The notes under the pieces: model-generated
What the model saw: the letters and a program-made list of their open reading frames with translations, nothing else
Told to the model about the DNA's origin: nothing
Database searches by the model: none
Shown: piece after piece, positions 1-64,000 of the stretch
Position numbering within the stretch: position 1 is the first letter of the stretch
How the letters are laid out: the number at the start of each line of letters is the position of its first letter
Position numbers and translations under genes: made by a program
Origin: Candidatus Bipolaricaulota bacterium
GTDB taxonomy: Bacteria > Patescibacteriota > Patescibacteriia > UBA11705 > DATKZF01
Reading direction: 5' to 3'
Assembly (NCBI GenBank): GCA_035528115.1
Contig: DATKZF010000002.1
Coordinates: 69,751 to 133,750, forward strand
Length of the DNA stretch: 64,000 bases

Positions 1-251
1 CGTCGCGCAGGACGCCATCAGAAACGTGACGCACGTGAACATTGACGCCATTCTCGCGAACCTCTTCATTTCGAATTCTCCCCCGCCGCTCGTTGCGACG
101 CGTGGAATGTTTCCGATTCTCATTCTCAGAATCTGGGAATCTCCCAAACTGTACTCGCTTCAGAGCGAAACGCTTACGGTTTGAGAGCCGAAAGGATTTA
201 CCTCTCGGCCGCTCCTCCTTGTTGATGTGATGTGATGCAGCTTCGCGGAAG

Positions 252-986
252 CTACTGGGACTTGCCCTTGTGCAGGTACAAGTTCCAATCGACCTTGCGC
301 TCGGCCGCGGCGGTCTCGGGAGCGTCTCCGCCCCCCATGACCGTCACGTTCGCGTCCTCGGCCTCGACGTTCACGGTCTTGTAGACCACGATCGTCTGCC
401 TACCGGCGGAAGGAATGTACTCCGGCCGCGGCAAGGGCATGGGCCGCGCGATGAGCTGCGTCTTCTGACGGGGACGCCGCGCGACCTGCGTGACCTTCAC
501 GCAGTCACTCTGACAGCCATCCGCCGTCGGCCGACACCGGAGCCGGTACCCTGGAAGGCACTGGCTCGGCGGGGCCGCGGTGAGCTGCACGGGTCGCTCG
601 CCGCAACCGTCGCCGAAGCATTTCTGCTCCAGCGCGTCGAGCCGCCGTCCGTGCTCCTCGATCTCCGGCTGGACGACGCCGATAGCGTCTGCCAGACGCC
701 CCACCTGGCTGGGCAGAACTTCCAACGAATGGTTGAAGTCCTGCCGCAAGGAATCGACATCGGCCATGTTCTGGGCAGCCAGCGCCGCCGTGTCTCCGAC
801 CACAGGAATCAATCCCGCAATCGAAGCGGCATTCTGGCCGCCCAGCGACCTTGCCTCCTCCGCCTTGACCCAGGCGGCGCCGCCGGTCTCGCCAACGGCA
901 GACACCCTCTGGCTGTTGTAGAACAAGTAGACCAGGACGGCGACCGAAGCCGCCGCCACCACAGCCGCCAGAATCTTTCGTCCCAT
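252..986 (-). CDS. Hypothetical membrane-anchored protein encoded in a GC-rich island. It has one N-terminal TM helix and a Cys-containing extracytoplasmic region
   Basis: ORF of 244 aa with N-terminal hydrophobic helix (ILAAVVAAASVAVLVYLF). Visibly GC-rich versus the flanks. AAGGAGG lies 7 nt upstream of the ATG (reverse complement of 987-1010). No recognisable family. Confidence 0.45.
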   Translation of the reverse strand: MGRKILAAVVAAASVAVLVYLFYNSQRVSAVGETGGAAWVKAEEARSLGGQNAASIAGLIPVVGDTAALAAQNMADVDSLRQDFNHSLEVLPSQVGRLADAIGVVQPEIEEHGRRLDALEQKCFGDGCGERPVQLTAAPPSQCLPGYRLRCRPTADGCQSDCVKVTQVARRPRQKTQLIARPMPLPRPEYIPSAGRQTIVVYKTVNVEAEDANVTVMGGGDAPETAAAERKVDWNLYLHKGKSQ

Positions 987-1228
987 GATGAATTCCTCCT
1001 TTCATGGGTTCGTAGGTTTCGTCCGTAAACTCGCCACACATCGCTTTATTCTTACCTCTAAAAATAAAACGATTTAAGGCGAGAAACCCCTTGTTTTAGC
1101 CACGATTCTGGCTATTTTATTTAACCGTTCAGTATAGCATGCTTTTAATTTTTTGTCAATACTTTAAACTCCCTTTTAAAAAACTCCAGGCGCGTTCATG
1201 GAACGCGCCTTTTAAGGTGAAAAAACTA

Positions 1229-2128
1229 CTAGATGATCATCGCCAGGAGAGCCCCGAGACCCATGGCGATGATGGAAAAGGCGATGACCTTCACCAGCAG
1301 GTCGCTGTCGCCGGAGCGATCATCGCCCTCCCCGGCCTGTCCGGCGGAGCCTTTCGGACCTTGCGGACCGACGGGACCCTGCGGACCTTCCGGACCGGCG
1401 AGTCCCTGCGGACCTTCCGGACCGACGGGTCCCTGCGGGCCTTCCGGACCGACGGGTCCCTGCGGGCCTCGGGGTCCTTCCAGACCCTGCGGGCCGGGCA
1501 CGGGTTCCGGCCTCCCCGAATCGTCTTCGACGATCGGCGGAGGCGCTTCGGGTTCTTCCGGCGGCTCCACCACACGGGTGGTGAGAGCCGCCGGATCCAC
1601 GACCGCGATGAGGCGGTGGCACCCGGGACAGATGAGCTCCTGCCCGGGCAAGGCCTGCTCCCGCGCGACCTCGATCTGCCGGTCGCAGGCCGCGCAGACG
1701 AGAGGAACGAACTCTTCGCCCTCCTCGTCGTCGCCGTCGCCACCATCCTCGTCATCGGTGGCGTCGTCGCCGTCGCCGTCGTCGTCGTCGGCTGCGTCGC
1801 CGTCGTCGTCGTTGTCCGGAGGCGGAGCATCCGCCCCCACCGGCATGTCCAAGCCGCAAACGTTGCACTGCGACGCGCCCGCGGGCACGGCCGCGCCGCA
1901 CTCGCACTTACGGCCGGAGGGCTCGGGTACGGACACGATCTCTCCTTTCTCGTTGATGCGAAATACCTGCCCGCACGTCTCGCAAATCCCCTCCGCGCCG
2001 GCGACAGCCGACTCGTCAGGGATCTCGCCCACCGCCCCGCAATCGGGGTTAGGACATTTGATCTCCATCTCTGTTTCCTTTCCCCAAATCCCATGGATTC
2101 GGGTTTTTTTATCATCCAAGTCCAACAC
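1229..2128 (-). CDS. Zinc-ribbon / collagen-like (G-P-X-G-P) repeat protein with acidic D/E tract and C-terminal TM anchor. Likely true start at 2068 (MEIKCPNP)
   Basis: Translation shows three CxxC...CxxC ribbons (CPNPDCG...CETCG; CECG...CNVCG; CAACD...CPGC). It also shows a long D/E/G-rich acidic stretch and about 12 tandem GP(E/Q)GP(Q/V) triplet repeats typical of collagen-like Gly-X-Y. The C-terminus is hydrophobic ([23 protein letters not shown]). Alternative-frame ORFs 1233..2156(+) and 1291..2151(-) are low-complexity artefacts of GC richness. An RBS-like GGAAAGGAAAC lies before the internal ATG at 2068. Confidence 0.6.
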
Positions 2129-2229
2129 GGAAAATCATAATATATTATCACATTAAGTAAATTCTGTCAATAGATAAAAGAACTCATTTCAATTAAAAAA
2201 AGCTATTTCCCTTGGGAAAATAGCCTTTG

Positions 2230-3663
2230 CTAGTAGTTCAACGCATTAACCTGATTGACGAGCGCTTCGAGCTGAGCCGAAATCCCATCAATCTTTTGCT
2301 CAGTCGACGGCGTCTGCCGCTCCACCTTCGCGGCCACCACAGCCTCCTTTGGGGGGGCAATGATTTTGTCCGCGGGGAGCGGCGAGAATTCGCACTGAAG
2401 CGCGGCCGAGGAGACCGATTCCAGCCGTTTTTGCGTCTCCTCGATTTGCCGAGAAAGCGCGGCGATCCGAGCCTCGAGACGAGCAAATTCTTCTCGCGAC
2501 CCATTTGAATCACCGGCCTTTTCGAGCGCCTTTTGCGCCCGCTTCAGCTGTTTGCCTTGCTCTTGCAGGGTCTCGCCTTGGGCTTTCATTTCTTTCGAAA
2601 TTCGAGCCAGTTTCTTGCTCATATCGCCTGCCGCGTATTGCCGAGCCTCCACAGCGGTGAGGCGTCTGCCGAGATTCCTGCCGAGCTTACGAAACGGTTC
2701 AGCCCATTTCTTCCCGGCCGCGGCAAGAACGGCCAGAGCCTTTTGCGTCGCGTTCTGGATTTCAAGCCGAGCCGCGGCCGCTTCCTTCAACGCCTGGTCG
2801 ACGGCCTGCTCCTTCTTGGCATACTTCTCCGAGAAAGAGCTCATGCCTTCAACCACGCGCATAACCTGCGGCAAGCTTTTTTCCAGCGCGCTCTGCGTGG
2901 CCTGACTTTTCTTGACGCTGATTTCAGCCTGCTTGCCGATGTCTCTGACCTCGATCAAAGACTTGTCGAGGTCTTGTCGCTTGATCGCGCTCGCGTCAAG
3001 CGCGGTAATCCTCCAACCCAGCTCAGAATAGTGCCTTTCCTGCAGGTAGAAAGCCACAATACCCGGGCTGCCAAGCACGACGGCGATGAGGATCGCCAGG
3101 GCTGGTCGCCAGTCATAGCTGACGCCACCATCAACGATCTTGTCCGGGTGGGATTCCACTCCGCCGGGCACAATATTATGCCAGTCATTCTCTGCCGGCA
3201 AAGCCCCCGACGGCGCGGCCGGCTGATCTTCAGCCGACTCTCCAGGAGGCTCAACAGTCTCTTCGTGTTGGAGAGCCGCCGCCGCAGGTGCCTCGGCATG
3301 AACCTCCACTACGAAATCCGCCGGCTGAGCATCCTGATGGATCAAGCCGTATTCAGCTATCGCAGCAGCCAGATCATCCGTGACGGACTCCTCATCATCG
3401 GTCTCAGACGCCGCGGCCGCGTCAGCGGACACCGGAACCAAGTCCCGATCCGTCGGATCCGGCGCTTGAGCAGGGCGACGCTGAACCGGTGTCGAAGTCG
3501 GCATCTGATCAAATGCCTCGAACGTCCCCTCTCCGTCAACCAAGCGTAGCATTATGCCGCAGTTGGGGCATGGTTCTTCATGCCCCTGATTCAGGTTTTC
3601 CACTTCAGCGGGTTTGACTTGCAAAGTCGCCTCGCAAATGGGGCACTTCCATGGCGTTTGCAT
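2230..3663 (-). CDS. N-terminal Zn-ribbon, central TM helix, C-terminal long coiled-coil protein (GC-rich island)
   Basis: The N-terminus has CPICE...CPNCG. A TM segment follows (ALAILIAVVLGSPGIVAFYL). About 280 aa of heptad-like K/E/A/Q-rich sequence complete the protein. GGAGG lies 5 nt upstream of the ATG. Composition is GC-rich like its two neighbours. Confidence 0.55.
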   Translation of the reverse strand: MQTPWKCPICEATLQVKPAEVENLNQGHEEPCPNCGIMLRLVDGEGTFEAFDQMPTSTPVQRRPAQAPDPTDRDLVPVSADAAAASETDDEESVTDDLAAAIAEYGLIHQDAQPADFVVEVHAEAPAAAALQHEETVEPPGESAEDQPAAPSGALPAENDWHNIVPGGVESHPDKIVDGGVSYDWRPALAILIAVVLGSPGIVAFYLQERHYSELGWRITALDASAIKRQDLDKSLIEVRDIGKQAEISVKKSQATQSALEKSLPQVMRVVEGMSSFSEKYAKKEQAVDQALKEAAAARLEIQNATQKALAVLAAAGKKWAEPFRKLGRNLGRRLTAVEARQYAAGDMSKKLARISKEMKAQGETLQEQGKQLKRAQKALEKAGDSNGSREEFARLEARIAALSRQIEETQKRLESVSSAALQCEFSPLPADKIIAPPKEAVVAAKVERQTPSTEQKIDGISAQLEALVNQVNALNY

Positions 3664-3807
3664 GATACCTCCAGAAAACGGTTGCGGGTTTGCTGATTTT
3701 CCGACATCTTAACTTAATACAAAAGCTAAATTTAATCAAGCACAACAATAAAAACACCGAGAGTCATCCAACTCTCGGGTTTTTAAATATATAATTTTTT
3801 TTAATGT

Positions 3808-4590
3808 TTATTGCGCGTTTTCTTGATGAGTTTTGGGCATAATATCGATTTCTTCTTCCGGATAATATGAATAAGTTTCGATTTCCGCTCGTTTTTTGGC
3901 GGCGGATTCCAAAGCCTCTTCCTCCTCAACATTTTCGATTATTTTAATCGGCCGTCTCTTTTTTTTGCCGCGACCGGTCGCGTTCGGCGAAAGAGCCACA
4001 TAAGAGATGCCGATAATGGCGCCGATCAATATTCCCAAAAACGCGTTCAACACGAAATTGGGCTTGACCGGATATCTCGAAACCAAAACATTATCAACGA
4101 TTTTAATACTGACATTGGAGGAGCCGATATACTCTTGGCCTTGCTTGGCCAAAACATCGGCCACGGCATTGGCCAATTCTCCCGCTTTGTATTGACTGCC
4201 GTCATAAACGATAATTTGCAAAATGCCCGTGCCTCTTTTTACCTGAGTTTCCACGGTTCTGGCCCATTCTTGTCGTCTTTTGTATTCCAAAGGATCAAAA
4301 GAACTTCTCGAGACATCATAGCCCGAATTCATGACTTTATCGAAAAAAGTCGAAGTATAAACCAATTGAGACAAACTGTCGGCCACTCTTTCCGCGGAAC
4401 GCGAAGCGCTGTAAATATCGTAATTCACGTCCCCCGTTTGAATAATCAAAAGACTGATTGAAGCCGAATATTTAAGAGGTTGAAATAAACTGAAAATCAA
4501 CGTTAACAACAACACAAAAGAAGTTATGAGAATGATTACCCCTTTTCTTTTTGAGACTTGAGATAAAATTAAAATTTCATTTGATTGCAT
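3808..4590 (-). CDS. Polysaccharide chain-length determinant (Wzz/YveK-like) protein
   Basis: Two TM helices (near the N- and C-terminus) flank a roughly 150-aa loop, with a charged C-tail. This topology and size are typical of the Wzz/CapA family. Assigned by architecture and weak motif similarity only. Confidence 0.45.
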   Translation of the reverse strand: MQSNEILILSQVSKRKGVIILITSFVLLLTLIFSLFQPLKYSASISLLIIQTGDVNYDIYSASRSAERVADSLSQLVYTSTFFDKVMNSGYDVSRSSFDPLEYKRRQEWARTVETQVKRGTGILQIIVYDGSQYKAGELANAVADVLAKQGQEYIGSSNVSIKIVDNVLVSRYPVKPNFVLNAFLGILIGAIIGISYVALSPNATGRGKKKRRPIKIIENVEEEEALESAAKKRAEIETYSYYPEEEIDIMPKTHQENAQ

Positions 4591-4640: not shown

Positions 4641-5771
4641 TTACTCTAAAATGACGGTTTTTTCAATATTCTCAACTCCTCGCAAAATTTTCATCACAAT
4701 CTCCTGCCCGGGCTTGTATGATTGAACCAATTTCGTCAAAGTATCGCTCGAAGTGATGGTTTCACCCTCGATTGAAATTATTATATCTCCCGGCAATAAA
4801 CCCGCTTTCTGAGCCGGACTTTGCGCCATAACGGCCGGCCACAAATCGGAAGCGAAAATTAAGGCGCCGTTTTTCACATCAGCATATTTGTCCCAGCCGA
4901 TTGATTCGCTCAAATCAATGAAATGAACGCCCAAAACCGGCCGAACTATTTTTTTCTCCGAAACGGCTTGCTTGATCACCATTTGAATATTATCGATGGC
5001 CAGAGCCGTGTTTTCGGAAGTGACAATGCCAAAAACCTGGCCGTCCAAATTAACCAAAGGCGCGCCAAGCCATTTCTTATCGAGCGTCTCAATCAATTTT
5101 ATTTCTTGATAATGAATTTCCGAAGAATGTATTAAGTCGCCCTTTTTCTCGGCGGAAGAAAAATATAAACGTTCTATGTTCGTCGGCAAAATATTATTTC
5201 CGGAAATAACCAAAGCCGTCTGGCCGCTGGATAAATATTCCCGACTTATCAAATTGACCACGGGCAAATCCTTGGCGTCAATTTTTATAAAACACGCCGT
5301 CGTGCCGGAATCGCAAACGGTCTCTTCGATCGAATAAACTTTTTTATCGAAAGAAACCGCCACTTCCTCGCCGCTTCCGCCCAAAACGCTTTTGTCCGTC
5401 AATATCCAACCGTCCGCGGTCATGATCGCGCCGACGCCCCGCGCGTCGTTTTCCAATAAAATATCATCGTACGAATTTGATTTTCTGCGAAACGCGTAAA
5501 AATCAACAATGGCCGGCCTGACGCTTTCAATGGTCGAATACACGGACAAATCTTTTTCGGACAAAATATCTTTTAATTTTTTATCCTGCTTGGCGGTCAA
5601 CTCGTCCAAACGCTGACTCAAAGTTTGAATTTTTTGTTCATCTGGAACTCCACCGGAAAGGAAAGAGTCCAGCCATAATTCCCCCAAGACTCCGGAAATG
5701 AAACCGAAAATCACGGACACGATTATCACGGACAAAATTTGCGCGTAAAACTTGGAAAAGAATTTTTTCAT
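4641..5771 (-). CDS. Membrane-anchored HtrA/DegP-like trypsin-fold protein with C-terminal PDZ domain. The catalytic Ser and His appear to be substituted
   Basis: N-terminal TM helix. The segment GAPLVNLDGQVFGIV aligns with the HtrA GNSGGPLVN..G.V.GI motif, but the Ser is missing. ILTDKSV sits where the His-containing IVTNNHV is expected. The C-terminal PDZ carries a GLLPGDIIISIEG motif. Confidence 0.55.
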   Translation of the reverse strand: MKKFFSKFYAQILSVIIVSVIFGFISGVLGELWLDSFLSGGVPDEQKIQTLSQRLDELTAKQDKKLKDILSEKDLSVYSTIESVRPAIVDFYAFRRKSNSYDDILLENDARGVGAIMTADGWILTDKSVLGGSGEEVAVSFDKKVYSIEETVCDSGTTACFIKIDAKDLPVVNLISREYLSSGQTALVISGNNILPTNIERLYFSSAEKKGDLIHSSEIHYQEIKLIETLDKKWLGAPLVNLDGQVFGIVTSENTALAIDNIQMVIKQAVSEKKIVRPVLGVHFIDLSESIGWDKYADVKNGALIFASDLWPAVMAQSPAQKAGLLPGDIIISIEGETITSSDTLTKLVQSYKPGQEIVMKILRGVENIEKTVILE

Positions 5772-5777
5772 ATTTAA

Positions 5778-6539
5778 TTATATCCACTGAGCAGTCAACA
5801 AAATCACTGCAAAGCAAACTGCGCTGATTATTACAAAATTAATGATTCTTTTTTTATCCAAACTGCCGAGCAGAAAAAATCTCGCCAAACCGGTCATCAA
5901 ATAAAAAGCGATGGTCATCACCAAACCGTTGACGAAATAGCTGGTCGGCAAATAATACAAGGCGCCGAAAAGCTCCACCAAAATAAACGAAATCGAAAAA
6001 ACAAAAATCCTGCCATCGGAAAACTTTATTTTGTTAACCCAGAAAAGTTGATACGTCAACAGACAAGAAACCAACAAGACCGTCAGCGCCAAGAACAACG
6101 AATTGATTTTCAAAAAAACCACCATGGCGTAGACGAACGAACAAAACAGAAAAACCGTCAAAATATTCAAGTACCAAGAAAAATTTTCCAATGAATACGG
6201 CTGGTATCTGGCCGGATAAAATTTAAAATCCAATATTCTGCCCAAATACAGGAACAAAACAATCCCTGAAAAAACAGCAAAAAGATGCAGAGTCCAACCT
6301 TTATTTAAAAATAACGAAAAACTGATTGATGAAATCACGTAAATCAACGGACTGATTACCAGCCCCCAAAACCCGGGACGCAACTTCCAGCGATTGAACA
6401 TCAATAAGGCGAAGAAAACGAGAACCGCGCTGAGCGAGCCGAAAATCCAGAGCAGATTTTCATTCAACATGATAATCTCAATGGTCAAGACAAGCATTAT
6501 GGACGTCAAAAATTGCGCTAACTTGTTGATTAAAAACAT
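5778..6539 (-). CDS. Polytopic integral membrane protein, function unknown
   Basis: 253 aa with about 8 predicted hydrophobic helices and no recognisable motif. The stop lies 4 nt before the next gene (operon-like with 6543..7631). Confidence 0.4.
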   Translation of the reverse strand: MFLINKLAQFLTSIMLVLTIEIIMLNENLLWIFGSLSAVLVFFALLMFNRWKLRPGFWGLVISPLIYVISSISFSLFLNKGWTLHLFAVFSGIVLFLYLGRILDFKFYPARYQPYSLENFSWYLNILTVFLFCSFVYAMVVFLKINSLFLALTVLLVSCLLTYQLFWVNKIKFSDGRIFVFSISFILVELFGALYYLPTSYFVNGLVMTIAFYLMTGLARFFLLGSLDKKRIINFVIISAVCFAVILLTAQWI

Positions 6540-6542
6540 AAA

Positions 6543-7631
6543 TTATTCAGTCGCCCTTTGCTTCATCCTATCCAAGGCGTCTCTTTCTTCAAATAATTCC
6601 TTAATCAAAATACTGATGGCCGTGGCCACGGGGATGGCGAGCACAGCGCCGATCACCCCTCCCACTTTCGCGCCGATAAGCAAAGCGATCACGCTGATGA
6701 TCGGATTTAAGCCCACCGCCTTTTGCATTATTTTGGGCACCAGCAAATGATTTTCCAGCTGTTGAATAATTACGAACAAAATCAGTACGAGCAAAGCCTT
6801 GAGCGGCGATTGAGCGAACGCCAGAAAAATGGCGGGAATCGAGCTGATGATCGGCCCGATGTAGGGAATAAATTCTCCGATGGCCGCTATCAAAGCCAAA
6901 ATCAATGCGTACTTCACGCCCAAAATCAACAACCCTATGTATGAAAAAATTCCGATTATCAAACTCAAAATCAACTGGCCTTTAAGCCAAGCGCCAATTT
7001 TCTTCTGGATCTTATTGATTAGCATCACGACAAAATCTTGGTATCGAGATGGCAAAACGGCTCGCAAAGTTCGTTTGATGGCGTCTTCTTCCACGGTCAT
7101 GTAAAACGTGATCACCAAAATCACCAAGAACGAAAACAGCCCGCCAAAGATGCTGGCCACCGTTGAAAAAATACTGCCGGCCGCTTTGGTCAGGGAAGAA
7201 CTGATTGATGACGCGTTGTCAGCGGATTGCTCAAATCCGAATTTGTCGGAATATTCTTTGACAAAAGAAAAAGCTTGCGTGACTTTTTCATAATATCGAG
7301 GAAAATTGTCCGCCAACTCGCTTACCTGATGGGCGATCGGCGGAATGATCAAAACAACGGCGGATCCGACGATGGCGATGGCCACCAAATAAACCAACAA
7401 AACGCTGACGCCTCGAGGAATTTTTTTGTTTTCCAAATAATCAACCCAAGAATCTATCGCCGAGGCGAAAATCAAAGCCACGAAAATCAGAGCCAGCACG
7501 TCTTTGATCAAATACAGAAAATACAAACTCAAAACAACCAAAAAAAACTTAACAATCGAAACAAAGGAGATATTTATCGTCCTGTGATTTTTCATATTTT
7601 TGATAAATGAAATGATGTTATCATTATACAA
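6543..7631 (-). CDS. AI-2E family transporter (PerM/YdiK/UPF0118-like permease)
   Basis: 362 aa, multi-TM with large loops. The architecture and motifs (LILALIAAIGEFIPYIGP, GLNPIISVIALLIGAKVGGVIGAVLAIP) are typical of the AI-2E / UPF0118 family. Confidence 0.6.
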   Translation of the reverse strand: MYNDNIISFIKNMKNHRTINISFVSIVKFFLVVLSLYFLYLIKDVLALIFVALIFASAIDSWVDYLENKKIPRGVSVLLVYLVAIAIVGSAVVLIIPPIAHQVSELADNFPRYYEKVTQAFSFVKEYSDKFGFEQSADNASSISSSLTKAAGSIFSTVASIFGGLFSFLVILVITFYMTVEEDAIKRTLRAVLPSRYQDFVVMLINKIQKKIGAWLKGQLILSLIIGIFSYIGLLILGVKYALILALIAAIGEFIPYIGPIISSIPAIFLAFAQSPLKALLVLILFVIIQQLENHLLVPKIMQKAVGLNPIISVIALLIGAKVGGVIGAVLAIPVATAISILIKELFEERDALDRMKQRATE

Positions 7632-8168
7632 TAATTTTTAAAAAACAGCTAATAACGCCGCGGCGGCAACCGAGCTTGACAAATTTCGTCTTTTTTGCTA
7701 CTATAATCAACTCTGCGATAAATTCGCGGAATTGTTCATTAATATCGCTCCGCTAGGACGCACATTTGGGCGTTATTTCAAATAAAATCCAAACGTGTGC
7801 CCTAGAGGGGCAAAAGGCCCCCCTCGTGGGGGACGAATGCTATTAATTACTAACATCAACCCACAAGGTTGACGTTGGATTTAGCCTTCCCTCATGAGCG
7901 CACTATAAAAAGGACAACAAGACAAACAGGAAAAAAATAAGAAAAGAGAAAGAGAAGAAAGCAGTACAAAAGAAGAAAGAAACCCCAGACGGTCCAACCC
8001 GATGTTGAAAAAACCCATGCAACCCCACCCACCCATGCTTACCCCAAACCTTTTCAACATTACTCCCGTCCCGCCCCAACCCACCTTGTACCCGCTTCTC
8101 TCAACCTTTCTCACTCCTGACAATGCACCTATTGTCCTTTTTTCTTTTTAAACGTATTATTTATAATA

Positions 8169-8627
8169 TTGAATATGAAACCCGTCTATAATAAACAAGC
8201 GCATTTCGATTATGAAATCCTGGAGAAATTCGAGGCGGGTTTGAAATTGACGGGCGCGGAAGTAAAAGCGGTCAAAGCCGGGGGCATTAACTTAAAAGGT
8301 TCCTATGTCACGCTCAAACAACAACCCAAAACCGAGGTTTTTTTAATCAACGCTCACATTTCAAAATATAAACCGGCCGGCGAGCAACCGGAATACGACC
8401 CGACAGGGTCTCGCAAACTGCTTTTGCGCAAAGAAGAAATCAATAAATTAACGGGTATTTTACGGCAAAAAGGCTTGACATTCGTCCCTCTTCGGGTGTA
8501 TACTAAGCACAACCTCGTTAAATTGGAATTCGGCGTCGGCCGAGGCAAGAAACGATTCGAGAAAAAAGACAGCATCAAAAAAAGAGAGAATGATCGAAAA
8601 ATTGAACGAGCGATGAAGCAATATTAA
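8169..8627 (+). CDS. smpB: SsrA-binding protein SmpB
   Basis: 152 aa. NKQAHFDYEILEKFEAGLKLTGAEVKA...GSRKLLLRKEEINKL matches the conserved SmpB core. tmRNA lies immediately downstream. Confidence 0.9.
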   Translation: MNMKPVYNKQAHFDYEILEKFEAGLKLTGAEVKAVKAGGINLKGSYVTLKQQPKTEVFLINAHISKYKPAGEQPEYDPTGSRKLLLRKEEINKLTGILRQKGLTFVPLRVYTKHNLVKLEFGVGRGKKRFEKKDSIKKRENDRKIERAMKQY

Positions 8628-8663
8628 TGATACGTGTTACGTGATGCATGATACGTGGATAAC

Positions 8664-9046
8664 GGGGATGATCGGCTTCGACGGGAGTCCTGAAATCAAA
8701 AGCGCGAAATGAGCTGTCAGCCGCTCATTAAACTGCTGGCAAATCCAATAAGTGCAACAAATGTACTGGCGAAAGTCAAAAGCTTATTTCAAGCTCCGGC
8801 TTTTGCTCCCGTTCTTGCCTAAAAGTGAGAACCGTCCGCTTGCCGATACTCGATGAGCAAACCGGACGTCAATATCGAGTTAGGCCGTCGCCATGCCAAA
8901 AGCGCCGACTGAAATAAAACGGCTCGGCCCGCTCGGAGTTTCGTTTATCTTTAATCCGGCGGTCTTAAATGATAAGATAAACTATTTTCGTAGATGCTTT
9001 TTATTTCAACTTCCAGACGCGGGTTCGATTCCCGCCATCTCCACCA
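8664..9046 (+). ncRNA. ssrA: tmRNA (SsrA)
   Basis: The 5' end GGGGATGATCGGCTTCGACGGG matches the canonical tmRNA 5' acceptor/D-arm consensus (GGGG..G.TTCGACGGG). The 3' end ACGCGGGTTCGATTCCCGCCATCTCCACCA is a tRNA-like T-arm plus acceptor with encoded CCA. The 5' GGGGATG pairs with 3' CATCTCC. It sits directly after smpB. The tag-peptide reading frame was not confidently identified. Confidence 0.85.
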
Positions 9047-10287: not shown

Positions 10288-11175
10288 TATCGTTTGATAT
10301 TCTTCGTATAATTTCTTGAATTCCTCTGAAATCTCCAACAAATTTTTTATCGCTTCCCTTTCTTCGGCCGAAGGCTTCGAAAGATCAATGTAAAAATCTT
10401 TGGCAATCTTCTTTTCCAAAATCTTCTTGCGCTTTTCCGGCCGCGCCGCTTTGTCAATGAGCGGAGCAGTACGCTCATCTCCCGACGGCCGATGCCTGTT
10501 TTTTATTTGGCATGACGCGGGCAAAAGTTTAAAATAACCCGGCAGCAATTTTTTTACAAAAAAAGGATTGGACGGCCGCTTGTCTTTGGTCAAAGATTGC
10601 GCCAAGGCGAAATATTTTTCCAAATAAGGGAAATGTCCGAGTTGGACGACCAAACGGCTCAAAACATGTTTTTTGATTCCTCTTATGCATTCCGCCAAAT
10701 TATTTATTCTCTCTTTTTCTGTTTCAGCTCCAATGGCGTCCATCATCTCATTTAATGCCGCTTCTTCCTCGGGCGTCATATTTTTCAAAAAATCTTGAGC
10801 GTAAACATCCATTTCTTTTATTTTGCCCAAAGCTTTTTCTTTTTCACCCCTTTCCTTCTCCATTCTTAAACATTTCAAGCGAGCGGCTGATTGTGAGAAT
10901 AAACGCGACTCCCCTTTTTCCATCTCTACGGTCTCTTCTTTTTCACCGGCTTTGCCGGTCCTGATTTTTTCCAAAATCTCATTGACCAAACTCTCATCGT
11001 CATTAAGTTGTTTTTTGTTTTTGTTCCGCATAAATATTGATTGGGAAAACCGATGCTTCCTTAAAACATTATAGCCGATTTTGGCAAAAGCATAAAGCCG
11101 AATGTGTTTTTTTTCACTAAAACGGACTTGACCGATTAAAGAAGTTTGGCTATAATGATAACGTCTTTGACGCAA
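10270..11175 (-). CDS. Hypothetical K/E-rich protein (start uncertain)
   Basis: 301-aa ORF, charged and helical, with no recognisable motif. Convergent with rplT. Confidence 0.35.
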   Translation of the reverse strand: MRQRRYHYSQTSLIGQVRFSEKKHIRLYAFAKIGYNVLRKHRFSQSIFMRNKNKKQLNDDESLVNEILEKIRTGKAGEKEETVEMEKGESRLFSQSAARLKCLRMEKERGEKEKALGKIKEMDVYAQDFLKNMTPEEEAALNEMMDAIGAETEKERINNLAECIRGIKKHVLSRLVVQLGHFPYLEKYFALAQSLTKDKRPSNPFFVKKLLPGYFKLLPASCQIKNRHRPSGDERTAPLIDKAARPEKRKKILEKKIAKDFYIDLSKPSAEEREAIKNLLEISEEFKKLYEEYQTIIKKSA

Positions 11176-11188
11176 AATTCAGGCTGTT

Positions 11189-11265
11189 GGATCGGTGGTG
11201 TAGCTGGTTAACACGCCGCCCTGTCACGGCGGAGATCGCGGGTTCGAGTCCCGTCCGATCCGCCA
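11189..11265 (+). tRNA. tRNA-Asp (anticodon GTC), CCA encoded
   Basis: Cloverleaf read by hand. The acceptor is GGATCGG/CCGATCC, with D-stem GTGT/ACAC. The anticodon stem is CCGCC/GGCGG with loop CTGTCAC (U33, GTC, A37). The T-arm is GCGGG-TTCGAGT-CCCGT, the discriminator is G, and CCA follows. It is flanked by the complementary ATTCAGGCTG / CAGCCTGAAT leader-trailer pairing. Confidence 0.88.
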
Positions 11266-11293
11266 GCCTGAATCTTGCGTTTTAAGCAAATGA

Positions 11294-11323
11294 AAAACCA
11301 TCGCCCAAGCGATGATTTTTTTA
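11294..11323. terminator. Rho-independent terminator after tRNA-Asp, followed by a second perfect palindrome at about 11331-11366
   Basis: AAAAACCATCGCCCAAGCGATGATTTTTTT is one hairpin. GCAAATTTGGGTTCAATCGATTGAACCCAAATTTGC is a 36-bp perfect palindrome. Confidence 0.55.
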
Positions 11324-17313: not shown

Positions 17314-18384
17314 ATGAAAGACCAAATTGATAAAATCAAAAAACAATTTCAAAAGCTGGAGCAAGATTTGCAGAATCCGGCCGTGATTAATGATCCTCAA
17401 AAAATAAAAAACGCGGCCAGTGAGCGCGCCAAGCTGACCGAAATCATCGAGGTTATCAGCGGCTACGAAAAGTCGCAAAAAAACTTGGCGCAGGCCAAAG
17501 AAACATTGGATGACAAAAATTCGGACGAAGAGCTGAAAGAACTGGCGAGAGCCGACATTGAAGACTTGGAAAATAAAATCGCGATCATGGCCGAACAAAT
17601 CAAGATTCATCTTCTGCCCAAAGATCCGAGAGACGAAAAAGACGTTATCGTGGAAATCCGAGCCGGCGCGGGCGGCGACGAGTCCGCGCTGTTCGCGGCC
17701 GATCTTTTCAGAATGTATTCGAAATACGCCGAAAGCAAAAACTGGAAAACATCGCTCCTTAGCGCCAACAGAATCGGCATCGGCGGTTTCAAAGAAGTGA
17801 TTTTCGAAATCAAAGGAAAAAGCGTTTTCGCCGACATGAAATACGAAATGGGCGTTCATCGCGTCCAAAGAGTGCCGGAGACTGAAAAACAAGGCCGAGT
17901 GCACACCTCCACGGCCACGGTGGCCGTACTGCCGCAAGCCGAAGAAGTCGATATTAAAATAGATCAAAAAGATCTGAGAATAGACACTTTTTGCGCCGGC
18001 GGACATGGCGGCCAGAGCGTCAACACCACTTACTCGGCTGTCAGGATCACTCACCTGCCCACCAATACCGTGGTCTCCTGCCAAGATGAACGTTCGCAAT
18101 CTCAAAACAAAGAAAAAGCCATGAGAGTCTTAAGATCAAGACTGCTTGAACTGGGAGAAGAAAAACACCACAAGGAAATTTCTCAAAATCGAAAAATGCA
18201 AGTCGGCTCGGGAGACAGATCCGAGAAAATCAGGACCTACAATTTTTCTCAAGACCGCATCACCGATCATCGCGTCAAACAAAACTGGTCGAACATTCAA
18301 ACCATTTTGGATGGAAATATCGGGCAAATAATTAAAACTCTCAAAGAAGAAGATGTTAAATTAAGGCTGGAAAAACAAAAATAA
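17314..18384 (+). CDS. prfA: Peptide chain release factor 1
   Basis: 356 aa. The RF1-specific tripeptide is in [17 protein letters not shown] (P-x-T). The GGQ motif is in [22 protein letters not shown]. Confidence 0.92.
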
Positions 18385-42298: not shown

Positions 42299-43012
42299 CT
42301 AGTACGGGTAGCAGGCGCCATCGTTGTCGCAGTACGTGCCGGTCGGACAGTCGTTGTCCGATCCGCAGGTGGCAGGCCGAGGCTCGGGCGCGCTCTGGTA
42401 ACAGAGCCCGTCCGAGGAGCAGAAGGTTCCGACCGGACAGTCGCTGGCCGACTGGCAGCCGGTCCGCGTGAGCGGGACACAGCTACCATCCGCGGCGCAG
42501 AAGTTGCCGACCGGGCAGTCGTAGTCCGAGATGCAACCGGCCTGCATCGCATAGCAGGCACCGTCAGCACCGCAGTAGAAACCGATATGACAGTCGGCAT
42601 CCACGCGGCAGCCTCCGACCGGACCGTCTTCGACCACGACCGCGACTTGCGAGACGCTGCAATAGCCGTCCCAGTCGCAGAACATGTCGGACCGGCAGTC
42701 CCAGTCGCTGGCACAGGGGTACAACCACTCACAGTAGTTGACCCCCGGGACAGCCATCGGCTGACAGTACATGTTGAACGGACAATCATCGTCCGTCCAA
42801 CAACCACCGTCTGTCGCGACCGCCTCGTCCACGTAGCCGGGCTCGCCGATGCAGGTGTTTCCCACATCGGTGCCGGTGCAGACCGTCCCGTACGGACAGT
42901 CGTAGTCGCTGTAGCACTGATCGTCGATCGGCTCGTGGTAGCCGACCGAGCCGAAGCAGCCGTTGAAGAAAGCGCACAGGACGCACAACGCCGCAAACAT
43001 CATGCTTTTCAT
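42299..43012 (-). CDS. Secreted cysteine-rich repeat protein with about 8 tandem DxDCPxGxxC(x)2-4DG(x)C modules; GC-rich
   Basis: The start is at the internal ATG at 43012, preceded by GGGGAG. The signal peptide is MKSMMFAALCVLCAFFNGCFG. Repeats such as SDYDCPYGTVCTG, TDDDCPFNMYCQP, SDWDCRSDMFCDWDGYC, VDADCHIGFYCGADGAC, SDYDCPVGNFCAADGSC, SASDCPVGTFCSSDGLC and SDNDCPTGTYCDNDGAC are read directly. Confidence 0.6.
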   Translation of the reverse strand: MKSMMFAALCVLCAFFNGCFGSVGYHEPIDDQCYSDYDCPYGTVCTGTDVGNTCIGEPGYVDEAVATDGGCWTDDDCPFNMYCQPMAVPGVNYCEWLYPCASDWDCRSDMFCDWDGYCSVSQVAVVVEDGPVGGCRVDADCHIGFYCGADGACYAMQAGCISDYDCPVGNFCAADGSCVPLTRTGCQSASDCPVGTFCSSDGLCYQSAPEPRPATCGSDNDCPTGTYCDNDGACYPY

Positions 43013-54141: not shown

Positions 54142-55236
54142 CTAGTCGACGTCTGCCGCGGGGAATGCCCCGGACAAGAAGTTCTCGGACTCGGCCGCCT
54201 TGGCCAGGTCCTGCTCGATCAACTTCGCCCAGAGCTCGACGACCGTGAGCGGGAGCTCGAAGATGAACCGGTCGCCGCGCGCGACCATGATCTCCTCGAG
54301 CAGGCCGAGATCATCCGAATTGCCCAGCAATCCGACGGCTGTGACCGGGGTCGGGTCGCCGAAGACCGCCTTGATCTTCTCGCCGCGAATGAAGACGCCC
54401 GGAGCCACTTCGTAGCCGGGCCAGGTGTCCGTCGCCGCGGTCTGGTAGAACTGCTCGACGACCGCCCAGAAACCCTCTTCCTCGCGGAAGTACTGCTCAA
54501 CCGTCTTGAAGAAACGGCTGAGCAATCCCGGCATGAAGCGCTGGAGCAGCTGCTCCTTCGAGCAGAGCGCCTCGGACGCGGCTCCGAGCATGTGCACGTC
54601 GAGGGGGAGCAAGTGCGCGAGCTCGGGGTACTTCTCGAACACCGGCCGGAACCCGGCCGCGAGTTCGGAAGCGCTCAAGCCGAACGCCTTGTCGCCGAGC
54701 GGACCGGACTGCCGCACTTCCGTTTCCTTGAGGAAGAAGCATGGCCCGTTCAGAACCTCGAAGATGGGGTGGCCGAGCCACTCCTCCCCTGCCTTCTCGT
54801 GCAGGTAGCCGGACAGCCGAGGCAGGCCGGCCTTGATGAAGTCGGTGATCGCCGCCTCCACGCGGGCGAAGAACGCCCGCGTGCCGCCGTCGTAATGCGC
54901 TAGCAGCTGCCGGCGCCGCCACGCCTTGCGCACGTCCACTGCATGCGTTCCGCGCTCCTGCGGATCCTGCTCGCTCGAGACCTCCAGCATGCGTAGGGGA
55001 GTAGCCGCCGCCTTCTTCTCCGCCTTGGCCGCGCTGGGCGGCACGTCGATCTGGAACACCTTCGGCTCTGACTTCGGCCGAGCCTCTGGAGGAACATCGG
55101 TCTGAAAGCCGTTGCCCGCCGGTGCCGCCGCCGAGTCGAGCCGGACAGTATTCGGTCCCGGCGTGAAATGCACCGCCGGATCCACGGTCGTGCCCGGCTC
55201 CGAAAAAGAAACGCCCTTGCCCTTCTTGTCCGTCAT
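54142..55236 (-). CDS. GC-rich orphan hypothetical protein (364 aa), Ala/Pro-rich N-terminal region
   Basis: AGGAGG lies 6 nt upstream of the ATG. It is much more GC-rich than the flanks. No family recognised. Confidence 0.45.
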   Translation of the reverse strand: MTDKKGKGVSFSEPGTTVDPAVHFTPGPNTVRLDSAAAPAGNGFQTDVPPEARPKSEPKVFQIDVPPSAAKAEKKAAATPLRMLEVSSEQDPQERGTHAVDVRKAWRRRQLLAHYDGGTRAFFARVEAAITDFIKAGLPRLSGYLHEKAGEEWLGHPIFEVLNGPCFFLKETEVRQSGPLGDKAFGLSASELAAGFRPVFEKYPELAHLLPLDVHMLGAASEALCSKEQLLQRFMPGLLSRFFKTVEQYFREEEGFWAVVEQFYQTAATDTWPGYEVAPGVFIRGEKIKAVFGDPTPVTAVGLLGNSDDLGLLEEIMVARGDRFIFELPLTVVELWAKLIEQDLAKAAESENFLSGAFPAADVD

Positions 55237-57032: not shown

Positions 57033-57040
57033 AATATATT

Positions 57041-62344: not shown

Positions 62345-64000
62345 TCAGCCGCCGCTCGGCGAGATGTCGCCGGTCGAGGTCAGACTGAACTTGATGCCGC
62401 ATGTGTACGCGCTGCCGTCGAAACCGCAGCGGCGAAACGGTCCGACATCATCGTAGAGCGAATCTCCATACTGCGCCCAAGCGCCCGACTCGCTCATGTA
62501 CGAGACGCTATACTGGCCGGCCAAGGTATTGGCGGGCAAAAGCAGACGGTAATAGCCGTCCGCGTCGATTGCCATTTGCATGCCGGATTGAAGCGACCAG
62601 CCCATGTCCGGCAATTCTCCAACCGCGAAAGCCGCGTTGGGCTTTCCGGTCAAGTATTGGCTGTTAAAGGCCAAACAGCGCTGACCGCAGGATTTCGCCG
62701 CCCAAAAATCGGGCGTCTGATCCGGCGAAGACTGAGGCGGCAATGACGAAGAAAAATCTTCGTCCGTTTGACCATCGCAGTTATTGTCCGCGTTGTCCTC
62801 CACTTCGGCGCTCGGCAAGACTTCATCTTGGATCGTCTGCCAGACGCCGTTGTCGCAATACTCGATTCGAGGCCGGCATTCTCCCACCCCGATCGTCTCG
62901 CTCGCTTCGGAATACGAAGTTTGCATCTGATGATCCACGCATTCTTCGTCGTCTTGCGGCGGATCGGGATATTGATTCCAGCCGTCGTCGGTCAGGCCGT
63001 CGCAGTCATTGTCTTGCCCGTCGTTTTGCTCCGGCTCGGGCAGGACCTCGTCTTGAGAAATGACCCAGTGTCCGCTTTGGCAGACCGAAATCTCCGGCCG
63101 GCAAGGACCGATGCCGAAGGTTTCGATCGATCCGGAGTAGGCGCTGAAAATTTGACCTTCTTCGCATTCGACAGGTGTCGAAAAATCCTCGTCCGTTTCG
63201 CCGTCGCAGTCATTGTCGAGGCCGTCCGCCGTTTCCGAGATTGGCAAGACCTCGTTTCTGATCTGATGCCAATCTCCGGCAAAACATTCTTCGATCTTGG
63301 TCCGGCACGAACCGACGTTCACCGTCTCGCTTGAACCGGAATAGGTTTCCAGCTCATCCCCATCGAGGCATGAGTTGCCTCCTCCTTCGGGATTTGCGAA
63401 ACACCGGTTGATGTTCTCGACGGTGATCAGGTCGCCGAAACCGGCGACGCTCATGAGCATTTGAGCCGCGTCCACGGTCCAGATCTGACCGCTCGCGTAG
63501 CCCATTTGCGAAAATACTTGAAAATTCGCGAACGGTCTGGCCACTCCATTGCCTGAAATGACAAAGACCGCGCCCTGGCCAAAGCCCTGATTGGTCAGAG
63601 CCGGTTCGGGTTTGACCAGCCGTCCGTCTCTGATGTGCAGAATGCCACCCTCATCGCAAACGGACAGCTTTTGCTGACCTTGCGACGCGGACAGCACGGG
63701 CATGTCTTCGGGCAGATAGCCCCAGCTTTCCGCGGCCAGCGCGGAAGCGAACTTGTAGATCATGCAGCCCTGGTCATTGGCCGATTGCTTTTCCAGCAGG
63801 TAATGCCAGCTGGCGCCGGCCACGCGAAAGACTTCGCGATAAGGCTGCCAGTCAACCGTCCAAGATTCCGGATAGCAGTCGAGCTCTGTCTGACTGACCT
63901 CCAGAATCAAGTTGGAGTCGAAGCCGTGAGCCAGGAAGACTTCCCAATTCACGACCCAGTGCTTGGCGCCATCGAGGAGAACGTAGACCTTGGGCTCGAG
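62345..64000 (-). CDS. Large GC-rich secreted/surface protein with three tandem MopE-like putative metal-binding repeats (D-x-D-N-D-C-D-G-x-T-D-E). 5' end beyond window
   Basis: The 5' end runs beyond the window, as the reading frame stays open to 64000. Three repeats are read directly: ...CRTKIEECFAGDWHQIRNEVLPISETADGLDNDCDGETDEDF, ...CRPEISVCQSGHWVISQDEVLPEPEQNDGQDNDCDGLTDDGW and ...CRPRIEYCDNGVWQTIQDEVLPSAEVEDNADNNCDGQTDEDF. Confidence 0.6.
   Translation of the reverse strand, partial: LEPKVYVLLDGAKHWVVNWEVFLAHGFDSNLILEVSQTELDCYPESWTVDWQPYREVFRVAGASWHYLLEKQSANDQGCMIYKFASALAAESWGYLPEDMPVLSASQGQQKLSVCDEGGILHIRDGRLVKPEPALTNQGFGQGAVFVISGNGVARPFANFQVFSQMGYASGQIWTVDAAQMLMSVAGFGDLITVENINRCFANPEGGGNSCLDGDELETYSGSSETVNVGSCRTKIEECFAGDWHQIRNEVLPISETADGLDNDCDGETDEDFSTPVECEEGQIFSAYSGSIETFGIGPCRPEISVCQSGHWVISQDEVLPEPEQNDGQDNDCDGLTDDGWNQYPDPPQDDEECVDHQMQTSYSEASETIGVGECRPRIEYCDNGVWQTIQDEVLPSAEVEDNADNNCDGQTDEDFSSSLPPQSSPDQTPDFWAAKSCGQRCLAFNSQYLTGKPNAAFAVGELPDMGWSLQSGMQMAIDADGYYRLLLPANTLAGQYSVSYMSESGAWAQYGDSLYDDVGPFRRCGFDGSAYTCGIKFSLTSTGDISPSGG

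Follow-up and report, generated by a model that had tools for sequence, protein, structure and literature searches.

Three GC-rich genes beside a DUF5656-PDZ-Wzz locus: probably the start of a clade-specific envelope gene cluster

What are three strikingly GC-rich genes doing next to core genes of moderate GC content, and how did they come to be there? The question is raised by a stretch of 64,000 nucleotides (the window: positions 69,751 to 133,750, forward strand, of contig DATKZF010000002.1), which carries near its start three minus-strand genes, here named g1, g2 and g3. A sequence-only reading of the window had taken them for a horizontally acquired three-gene cassette of surface or envelope proteins, and had suggested a high-GC donor such as an actinobacterial host cell. 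The evidence leans, if not heavily, towards a different answer. g1, g2 and g3 would be the first three genes (of classes C, B and A, respectively) of a clade-specific envelope gene cluster that follows a DUF5656 gene, a PDZ protease gene and a Wzz-like gene, that is diversifying, and that has probably been renewed at its locus.

The compositional contrast itself is clear. In 200-nt windows GC content is 0.63-0.75 within g1 to g3 and 0.35-0.41 in their spacers, and it is 0.41-0.45 across the 6 kb beyond 3.7 kb. GC content and GC content at third codon positions (GC3) are 0.665 and 0.83 for g1, 0.677 and 0.76 for g2 when taken as 1229-2128 (GC3 is 0.78 in the codon-class analysis), and 0.586 and 0.65 for g3. 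All of these values fall outside the core range (GC 0.385-0.514, GC3 about 0.52), and the compositional step at 3663-3808 is sharp. That three co-directional minus-strand open reading frames (ORFs) are far GC-richer than the DNA that follows is therefore confirmed (59-69% versus 45% in the core).

One detail of gene structure needs correcting. GC content is 0.43 in the region from 2128 to 2069 and 0.60 beyond 2068. Because the rise begins only there, and because a Shine-Dalgarno (SD)-like AAGGA precedes it, the ATG at 2068 is more likely the start of g2 than the GTG at 2128. The NCBI annotation, which calls g2 at 279 aa, agrees. In public metagenome-assembled genome (MAG) assemblies the sequence carries the locus tags VMX18_01655-01665, and a check for strain polymorphism found the available assemblies identical to one another. 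A "90% variant" of g2 was rejected as a polymorphism; it differs from g2 only at residue 1, where V replaces M. Chimeric assembly was ruled out as well. The junction is identical in a second, separately assembled contig with a different sample record, and the gene order is also present on a JGI contig.

What do relatives have at this site? The PDZ protease beside the cluster has relatives at 55-60% identity, one of them in a MAG titled "Patescibacteria group bacterium". Because these protease relatives are labelled Patescibacteria, and because a DUF5656 gene is present at the locus and the genome is small, the organism is more likely a Patescibacterium, and its NCBI label "Candidatus Bipolaricaulota bacterium" looks wrong. 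Three relatives have contigs long enough for comparison (L003, which is MAG187, L004 and L007), none of them closer than about 60% in the flanking protease. The order L20-L35-IF3-SmpB-AI-2E-DUF5656-PDZ-Wzz is common to all three. Past Wzz, each relative has unannotated genes of matching architecture in matching order, although the L007 contig ends after gene A, so that only position A is comparable there. Class A proteins have one or more zinc ribbons, an acidic linker, one transmembrane (TM) helix and a helical ectodomain. Class B is a tail-anchored protein, and class C combines an N-terminal anchor with a helix, a Cys motif and a basic tail. Class D lipoproteins measure about 185 aa and have their TM helix at the C-terminus, and class E is a large MopE lipoprotein.

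Sequence similarity between these counterparts varies by class. The E proteins are clearly homologous between genomes (1e-24 to 1e-61), and D of L003 matches D of L004 at 8e-11. A profile built from the relatives' class D proteins ranks the window's D first among 297 ORF segments, with a weak E value of 0.021. The relatives' class C profile likewise ranks g1 first among the 297 (weak E value, 0.35), and their class A and B profiles match nothing. Pairwise BLAST of g1, g2 and g3 against their counterparts is not significant. We infer that A to C are orthologous across the genomes. The cluster proteins diverge far faster than the flanking core.

More distant Patescibacteria are informative in another way. 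In these genomes DUF5656-PDZ is followed directly by phosphoglycerate kinase (PGK)/enolase or LepA genes, with neither Wzz nor the cluster. Because the relatives carry equivalents at the site while the more distant genomes do not, the cluster is clade-specific and was present in the common ancestor of the clade. Syntenic counterparts at the same site in 3/3 relatives largely dispose of a recent acquisition.

Extra genes were seen at two places in the relatives. In L003 (12079-13089, 337 aa) and L004 (12065-13138, 358 aa) a minus-strand lipoprotein gene lies between Wzz and gene A. The two products are 42% identical and their genes moderately GC-shifted; the gene is absent in the window genome, where 145 nt separate Wzz from g3. 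L004 also has a two-gene accessory insert (5097-7930) between smpB and the AI-2E gene, encoding a 697-aa Band_7 protein and a 247-aa His/Asp-repeat protein. Both genes have GTG starts, SD motifs (GGAG and AAGGAGGT) and slightly raised GC, and are thus SD-led in an SD-less background.

The cluster does not stop at the start of the window. Locus L001, which comes from the same genome, runs 10 kb past that point with a GC content of 0.54-0.70 throughout, and in these 10 kb four further SD-led genes run in the same direction: D, E, E2 and a giant lipoprotein gene. The supposed three-gene island is thus a GC-rich cluster of which at least 13.4 kb are seen and which is probably at least 15.6 kb long, the distal end lying outside the 13.4 kb read. 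Its fourth co-directional gene, D, starts at window position 69 (full gene, L001 10918-11481; GC3 0.83; SD GGAG). E (517 aa) and E2 (570 aa) are Cys-rich lipoproteins with MopE motifs. The giant lipoprotein gene encodes at least 1664 aa, of which 17% are Cys, in 22-residue CGDGxCxxxExxxxCPxDCG repeats. The products of E, E2 and the giant gene all qualify as large Cys-rich proteins in the sense used for the candidate phyla radiation (CPR). A search for integrases or flanking repeats beyond position 1 had been suggested earlier. No integrase, transposase, tRNA target or att-like repeat was found at the proximal boundary or within the 13.4 kb, and the nearest tRNA gene is at 11189.

Several of the cluster genes contain internal tandem repeats. 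Those of E2 and g2 are recent. E2 has 156-nt units (L001 14312-14916) that are 87-88% identical, and every unit encodes a CGNGVLDAGEECDY...WCNADCTFHWEAC module. In g2, the collagen region (window 1336-1521) carries 27-nt units with 81-85% identity, and the giant gene carries 66-nt units. These repeats show that the cluster genes are undergoing remodelling.

Public annotation gives another picture of part of this region. There, a 2439-aa product (L001 15646-20735) and a 121-aa product (10942-11307) are called on the opposite strand, and the same is true of locus L033. The frame with a GC3 of 0.77-0.83 is on the cluster strand, where it encodes the giant lipoprotein and lipoprotein D. The opposite-strand calls look like antisense artefacts.

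How much of the GC excess is a matter of codons, and how much simply reflects the proteins encoded? GC content was predicted from the amino acids of each gene and the codon preferences of 40 core genes (core mean GC 0.447). For g3 the predicted value is 0.539 and the observed value 0.588, which makes the amino-acid share of the excess 65%. The corresponding values are 0.614, 0.697 and 67% for g2, and 0.566, 0.668 and 54% for g1. The amino acids responsible belong to a composition rich in Ala, Gly, Pro, Asp and Glu. The remainder is a genuine shift at synonymous sites, which is greatest in g1 and least in g3. The idea that high GC is the signature of a donor is therefore only partly sustained. 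A share of 54-67% is driven by amino acids, and at fourfold sites g3 equals the core, but for g1 and g2 the synonymous shift is real.

Codon classes show where the shift lies. In the core, GC content is 0.66 at fourfold sites and 0.36-0.44 at twofold sites. g3 has a fourfold GC of 0.687, as in the core, with intermediate twofold sites. In contrast, g2, g1, D, E, E2, the giant gene and two further window genes (starting at 42299 and 54142) have a GC content of about 0.77-0.96 in every synonymous codon class; for g1, fourfold GC is 0.81 and twofold G/(A+G) is 0.96. These genes exceed the per-gene maxima of the core at twofold sites, and are at or just above them at fourfold sites. The GC-shifted genes form a discrete codon class, and the ribosomal protein genes are outside it.

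Simpler causes were considered. Amino-acid composition by itself is rejected for g1 and g2, where both twofold and fourfold sites are shifted, and largely accepted for g3. Translational selection for GC-ending codons is also rejected, the L1, L25, gyrB, RF1 and SerRS genes being unshifted. Strand bias was controlled for with same-strand core genes. Core codons do depend on the strand: C/(C+T) is about 0.5-0.6 and G/(A+G) about 0.2-0.3 on the plus strand, with the reverse on the minus strand. The six GC-rich genes of the window are all minus-strand genes. Because GC skew is negative across nearly the whole window, the minus strand is the G-rich strand and presumably the leading one.

The shift is not peculiar to the window genome. 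Expressed as logits, the shift of genes C to E at fourfold, twofold pyrimidine (Y) and twofold purine (R) sites is +1.04, +2.12 and +2.18 in the window genome, +0.54, +1.87 and +1.29 in L003, and +0.35, +1.24 and +0.72 in L004, and it is significant in each. Genes A and B are shifted in the window genome only, where there is a gradient C-E > B > A > Wzz; the giant gene was seen in the window genome only. In the Lawrence-Ochman test, the window-genome cluster genes lie on the Muto-Osawa equilibrium lines of a genome with 59-68% GC. The cluster genes of L004 show a GC3 deficit of 5-13 points against the Muto-Osawa expectation, which is amelioration-like. In all of this the spacers of the cluster stay at 0.32-0.38 GC, so that the shift halts at coding boundaries. 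The core has an anomaly of its own, in that the core genes tested exceed the Muto-Osawa expectation for GC3 by 7-21 points.

A further mark of the cluster concerns translation. An SD motif of at least 5 nt is present in 4/6 GC-rich window genes versus 1/44 core genes; accepting any in-frame start in the first 40 codons brings the core figure to 3/45 (Fisher p = 0.002). Across the four genomes, such a motif with proper spacing is found in 16/18 cluster genes versus 3/39 flanking core genes (p = 2e-9). Gene A of L004 is SD-led although its GC3 (0.25) equals the background. SD-led translation is thus a trait of the cluster that is independent of GC. The motifs are probably functional, because unused motifs would decay and yet these are conserved. 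The earlier observation that each of the three genes has a canonical ribosome binding site (AAGGAGG, AAGGA and GGAGGT), while most core genes have none, is borne out by these counts.

How, then, might the core genes be translated? Several of them (between 3808 and 61705) have a TATAAT-like box 6-10 nt before the ATG, examples being 4641-5771, 17314-18384 and 24326-25276, and in some cases the box shares bases with the stop codon of the preceding gene. Lying so close to the start codons, the -10-like boxes hint at leaderless or SD-independent initiation.

Transcription signals were found in the spacers of the three-gene segment (Table 1). The sequence-only reading had described AT-rich spacers with promoter-like sequences of their own. 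The spacers are indeed AT-rich, and g1 and g2 have sigma-70-type promoters; for g3, however, a consensus scan returned no promoter match of at least 9/12. There is a terminator upstream of g3, which therefore implies that g3 has its own promoter. No terminator was found after g1. A promoter near the sigma-70 consensus also precedes the core Wzz gene. The 5' untranslated region (UTR) predicted for g1 is unusually long (about 138 nt) and has a palindrome (TAGCCAGAATCGTGGCTA) and T-rich tracts (986-1131). It could be a regulatory leader. Regulatory RNA as an explanation for the long 5' UTRs was dropped, there being no credible Rfam match.

The three proteins have one TM helix each, as had been claimed. 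In g1 it is N-terminal, in g2 it sits at the very C-terminus, and in g3 it spans residues 187-209. The g1 protein continues from its membrane anchor into a long helix, a 6-Cys motif (residues 123-162) and a basic, Pro-rich disordered tail. The g2 protein begins with three Cys4 zinc-ribbon motifs, followed by an acidic low-complexity stretch (87-119) and, at residues 192-248, 19 uninterrupted GXY triplets. The latter bear out the description of a collagen-like protein, since they score above the Pfam Collagen threshold (34.5 bits, cut-off 27.2; 1.7e-8). The region also matches the collagen parts of the NCBIfam models SclB (35.8 bits, cut-off 325), Lcl (30.4 bits, cut-off 500) and SclA, but g2 has no full-length match to a collagen-like adhesin family model, no signal peptide and no LPXTG motif. 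The g3 protein starts with a zinc ribbon, CPIC-x21-CPNC (C7/C10 and C32/C35). An acidic disordered linker (about 53-182), the TM helix and about 220 aa of long helices come next, with long helices predicted at 254-425, in keeping with the coiled-coil membrane protein proposed earlier.

On which side of the membrane do these parts lie? The zinc ribbons of two of the proteins had been placed in the cytoplasm. The Cys motifs are present in g2 and g3, but topology is ambiguous by flanking charges. A C-terminal tail anchor in g2 would put the collagen-like rod in the cytoplasm unless there is an unusual export route. The ribbons themselves, with two CxxC knuckles, stay below threshold in Pfam (13.7-19.8 bits against cut-offs of 25-30 for the Zn_ribbon_4/MJ0042-type, DZR and LysW-like families). 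In an AlphaFold2 (AF2) model of g3, residues 1-50 form short beta strands with a predicted local distance difference test (pLDDT) score of 66-82; the models of g1 and g3 are single-sequence models with a pLDDT of 53 each. The zinc-binding anti-sigma factor motif H-x3-C-x2-C is absent from the g2 and g3 sequences, and no called gene in the 20-kb loci around the cluster in the four genomes has a sigma-factor Pfam match. The focal proteins (244-477 aa, 5-12 Cys) are not large Cys-rich proteins of the CPR kind, and neither g2 nor g3 has a signal peptide.

Searches for a donor gave little. g1 and g3 match only themselves among 5.8 billion proteins, and an exhaustive HMMER scan of 1.84 billion cluster representatives with g3 again returned only g3. 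Pfam, NCBIfam, PADLOC, PHROGs and PDB gave only compositional or sub-threshold matches, g2 being above threshold for Pfam Collagen, and the PDB sequence search with g1 and g3 gave chance-level matches. Phage, plasmid and viral collections gave no match. A phage, plasmid or defence origin was rejected, the matches being purely compositional (collagen repeats to tail fibres, the coiled coil to SMC-like arms). No search made produced an actinobacterial link (g2, with low-complexity regions that would dominate the result, was not searched whole against the large protein database). With g1 and g3 being ORFans, the proposal of an actinobacterial host as donor is not supported.

The only outside likeness is that of the Cys-rich and MopE repeats in the neighbouring genes. 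For the giant-gene repeats, relatives with 37-56% identity occur on contigs whose GC content is a uniform 62-72%. Such contigs were rejected as donors of the whole cluster; they carry housekeeping genes and no A to D genes. In a search with the E-class alignment (MopE motif), MAG187 is best among the matches listed. Also among the matches listed, and alike in the repeats only, are Myxococcales, Polyangiaceae, "Deltaproteobacteria", a Pseudobdellovibrionaceae MAG (41% GC) and a Woesearchaeote (34% GC). The C-terminal domain of class E was seen only in Patescibacteria loci and in the window paralogue.

What might such a cluster do, and how could it be kept so different from its surroundings? In the three-gene segment each gene would be a transcription unit of its own, made up of an AT-rich spacer, a 5' UTR with a strong SD motif, a GC-rich coding region and a terminator. 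Protein A may be bitopic, its zinc ribbon and its long helical stalk lying on opposite sides of the membrane. B would be tail-anchored, with zinc ribbons and a collagen-like rod, and C would consist of an N-terminal anchor, a helical stalk and a small Cys-knot. D may be a doubly anchored lipoprotein. E and E2 are Cys-rich lipoproteins of the MopE type, next to a giant lipoprotein of 22-residue Cys repeats. Judging from architecture alone, the products of the cluster would together form a membrane-anchored, disulfide-stabilised surface structure for contact with another cell. A function at the surface or in cell contact is the most plausible one; it is, like the topology and the cause of the synonymous shift, inferred. 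Diversifying pressure on the structure would make A to C unrecognisable between relatives. As for the synonymous shift, its most likely source is an accessory gene pool that is richer in GC and uses SD motifs, with alleles from this pool replacing those at the conserved site and so renewing the locus.

Several explanations compete here. One is that the three genes form a cassette acquired recently from a high-GC donor, for example an actinobacterial host cell, and integrated next to core genes. That would account for the sharp step at 3663-3808, the GC3 of up to 0.83, the homogeneous codon usage of a roughly 65% GC genome without any sign of amelioration, the SD sites in a genome whose core genes are without them, and the ORFan genes. 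Nevertheless, this is very improbable. The cluster continues for at least another 10 kb, the relatives have the same order and architectures at the same site, and the proximal boundary has no integrase, tRNA or att-like repeat. In addition, g1 and g3 have no actinobacterial or other homologue and no phage or plasmid match, the spacers are AT-rich, with two sigma-70-type promoters like that of the core Wzz gene, and the fourfold GC of g3 is that of the core. The actinobacterial version is the least supported of all the readings and has already been largely refuted by synteny. What survives of the cassette is that the genes encode envelope or membrane proteins, by architecture, with distinct composition and translation signals; that the cassette is discrete or recent is not supported. 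An older transfer into the clade ancestor is possible. What if the cluster, or its Cys-rich lipoprotein genes, came once from a Myxococcota-like high-GC bacterium and has been ameliorating slowly since then? The absence of the cluster at the site in more distant Patescibacteria would fit, as would the MopE, Myxo_Cys_RPT and acidic-disulfide repeat motifs, the repeat relatives on 62-72% GC contigs and in Myxococcales, Polyangiaceae and Deltaproteobacteria MAGs, and the amelioration-like GC3 deficit of L004. The CxxC-x18-21-CxxC spacing of the zinc ribbons recalls Myxococcus MJ0042-type fingers, which we take to be a lead and not a test. This explanation is nonetheless improbable. If the ancestral fourfold GC is assumed to have been about 0.85, the estimated amelioration would differ from roughly 20% in the window genome to 80% in L004 over the same time. 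Genes A and B are shifted in the window genome, yet their counterparts in L003 and L004 are not, and the window-genome cluster genes have no GC3 deficit. Moreover, the likeness is confined to short Cys repeats that also occur in the 34% GC archaeon and the 41% GC Bdellovibrio-like MAG.

Perhaps no transfer after the clade ancestor is needed, and a persistent force raises GC in place in vertically inherited genes. It could be GC-biased gene conversion, the surface locus being prone to recombination as it diversifies, or selection on mRNA properties of the SD-led genes. C to E are shifted relative to the same-strand core in three genomes with fourfold backgrounds from 0.30 to 0.68, and all three share one pattern, in which the shift is larger at twofold than at fourfold sites. 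At 55-60% identity of the flanking protein, synonymous sites should be saturated, and so an ancestral shift should have decayed. The spatial gradient in the window genome points the same way, and the tandem repeats indicate frequent intragenic recombination. However, the effect ends at the coding boundaries (spacers, 0.32-0.38 GC), its size differs about three-fold between genomes, and the L004 deficit looks like amelioration. The lone shifted genes at 42299 and 54142, among core genes, fit separate insertions better than separate hotspots. The known effects of GC-biased gene conversion on bacterial GC3 are also a few percentage points, not 30. On balance a force of this kind is unlikely. Rather doubtful, too, is the broader proposal that the clade keeps two classes of genes over the long term, an SD-less core of moderate GC and a set of individually transcribed, SD-led, GC-shifted genes for envelope and secreted proteins, actively maintained by biased gene conversion or mRNA selection. 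Allele replacement at a conserved site, from a GC-richer pool, is a possible later event and remains the most likely cause of the shift, with a single recent insertion less likely. It is favoured because of the discrete codon class, the scattered single shifted genes, the shift of A and B in the window genome only and the Muto-Osawa fit. There are observations that do not fit this preferred view or that weaken it. Allele replacement needs GC-rich donors with the same cluster, and none were found; the GC-rich contigs with similar Cys repeats, as mentioned, carry housekeeping genes and no A to D genes. The dinucleotide delta* of window 1-3663 is 128, borderline against a null with a mean of 53 and a maximum of 122. 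Composition and codon usage are unlike those of the host genome, with GC, GC3 and all synonymous classes shifted for g1 and g2 and a partial shift for g3; only the dinucleotide signature is borderline. The same segment retains the host's CpG and AA/TT excess, and its spacers are as AT-rich as native intergenic DNA, two of them with promoters like that of the core Wzz gene. The usable relatives number three, and none is close. The orthology of g3 and g2 is without statistical support from sequence; it draws on position, architecture and short motifs seen by eye (LES..CEFSPLP versus LES..CCFSPAP; FYLQERHYSEL versus AYLSDKRYNEL). Finally, the surface function is read from architecture, with ambiguous topology and a pLDDT of 53.

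Comparison with known systems helps to place the cluster. Peribacteria, which belong to the CPR, have large, Cys-rich, strain-variable extracellular proteins with weak similarity to Myxococcus Cys repeats, and a role in attachment has been proposed for them (Anantharaman et al. 2016, PMC4736985). The likeness to the cluster includes a small CPR genome, large secreted or lipoprotein products, a very high Cys content (17% in the giant gene) and the weak resemblance to Myxococcus repeats. This description fits E, E2 and the giant gene, whereas the focal g1 to g3 differ in architecture and have 5-12 Cys. The Peribacteria genome is itself 58.5% GC and no compositional contrast was reported; the conserved gene order, the SD-led/SD-less split and the GC shift seen here are not described for Peribacteria (PMC4736985). 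Genomic islands and transferred genes have been surveyed in Patescibacteria, with most transfers occurring within the phylum (PMC12455944). The cluster is like these islands in being an accessory region of atypical composition in a streamlined CPR genome. It is unlike them in that its position and order are conserved in the clade and not sporadic, that there are no mobility genes or att repeats at the proximal boundary, and that no donor was detected.

Other parallels are more distant. The O-antigen (rfb) clusters between galF and gnd of Enterobacteriaceae are hypervariable, with conserved flanks, atypical GC and recombination in the flanks. Conserved flanks (including a Wzz-like gene), divergent contents, odd composition and the proposed allele replacement are all rfb-like traits. 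However, the present cluster encodes structural membrane or secreted proteins, deviates towards high GC and keeps its order while the sequences change. The uninterrupted GXY run above the Pfam Collagen threshold makes g2 resemble Scl1/Scl2 of Streptococcus and Lcl of Legionella; unlike these, it has no signal peptide, LPXTG motif or wall anchor, but three Cys4 ribbons and a C-terminal tail anchor. The MJ0042-type finger proteins of Myxococcus (AgmX/GltJ) presumably share with the cluster an N-terminal CxxC-x(about 19)-CxxC motif, a low-complexity linker and a single TM helix, and the cluster has other modules of a Myxococcota-like kind; this again is a lead only. In contrast to AgmX/GltJ, g2 scores 14.9 bits against a cut-off of 30.3 for Zn_ribbon_4 and g3 has no hit, there is no GYF or shared ectodomain, and no motility genes are nearby. 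Three aspects are not described in the two published accounts (PMC12455944; PMC4736985) or for the O-antigen precedent: order and architecture are conserved without sequence similarity, an SD-less core stands sharply apart from an SD-led cluster throughout a clade, and a synonymous GC shift confined to genes is kept up in genomes whose GC content runs from 33% to 45%.

Table 1. Genes and predicted signals of the cluster and related genes in the window (window coordinates)
Feature	Position	Strand	Remarks
Gene D, 5' end	1..69	-	Lipoprotein of about 187 aa (MKRFARMASMFTCVTFLMASC...), C-terminal TM helix; runs off window start
g1 (class C gene)	252..986	-	244 aa
SD of g1	995..1001	-	AAGGAGG (minus-strand reading)
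Sigma-70-type promoter of g1	1131..1159	-	TTGACA-17-TATACT, 11/12, with TG
Intrinsic terminator after g2	1188..1210	-	10-bp stem, 7 GC pairs, T-run
g2 (class B gene)	1229..2068	-	279 aa from ATG 2068; alternative GTG at 2128
SD-like motif of g2	2076..2080	-	AAGGA, before ATG 2068
Sigma-70-type promoter of g2	2142..2170	-	TTGACA-17-TAATAT, 10/12, with TG
Intrinsic terminator after g3	2198..2228	-	14-bp stem and T-run
g3 (class A gene)	2230..3663	-	477 aa
SD of g3	3667..3672	-	GGAGGT (minus-strand reading)
Terminator after Wzz-like gene	3757..3778	-	Proximal cluster boundary; GC drops to 0.32-0.40 there
Wzz/GNVR-like gene	3808..4590	-	Closes the conserved core block ahead of the cluster in all four genomes; core codon classes
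Cys-rich secreted protein gene	42299..43012	-	GC-shifted; between gatB and miaA
Gene at 54142	54142..55236	-	GC-shifted, SD-led (AGGAGG), 364 aa, without family match
Class E paralogue	62345..63952	-	Paralogue of class E MopE lipoproteins; intermediate GC shift; Pfam MopE

The rest of the window holds a few more genes that bear on the cluster (Table 1). The Wzz-like gene scores just below the gathering cut-offs of both Pfam Wzz and Pfam GNVR. The Cys-rich protein encoded at 42299 matches Pfam Dickkopf_N and DUF7107, with NCBIfam Myxo_Cys_RPT at 24.9 bits, just below the 25-bit cut-off, and its gene has a GC content of 0.83 at fourfold, 0.78 at twofold Y and 0.80 at twofold R sites. The protein encoded at 62345 aligns with the E-class proteins, the common C-terminal domain included.

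Two other observations concern the surroundings. At window 8175-9046, smpB is directly followed by the gene for transfer-messenger RNA (tmRNA; 8664-9046, tag ATNVLAKVKSLFQAPAFAPVLA), and this pair therefore confirms the region adjoining the cluster as core genome. There is also a low-GC island (56013-60063; GC 0.32-0.34, GC3 0.23-0.30) with genes for a GT1 glycosyltransferase, for an ATP-grasp enzyme and for a fusion of a GT2 with a BpsA_C-like domain, and, separately, a low-GC peptidase S51 gene (32981-33676). Together with the GC-rich cluster, they therefore mean that the genome has atypical regions in both compositional directions.

What does the cluster mean beyond this genome? Part of the answer is cautionary. 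Amino-acid composition can account for more than half of a 20-point GC excess, an island of odd composition can date back to the ancestor of a clade instead of being recent, and gene callers place long antisense artefacts on GC-rich genes of this kind in public annotation. If the synonymous shift is actively maintained, it would be an unusually strong gene-confined GC bias for a bacterium, and two maintained gene classes, if true, would amount to a built-in translational partition between housekeeping and surface genes. The other part concerns the way of life of the organism. Patescibacteria depend on cell contact, and the structures that make contact are mostly unknown, encoded by ORFans that cannot be annotated. 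The locus described here offers positionally conserved candidate envelope genes that can be recognised without sequence similarity, namely by a position after DUF5656-PDZ-Wzz, a strong SD motif in an SD-less genome and a GC-shifted codon class.

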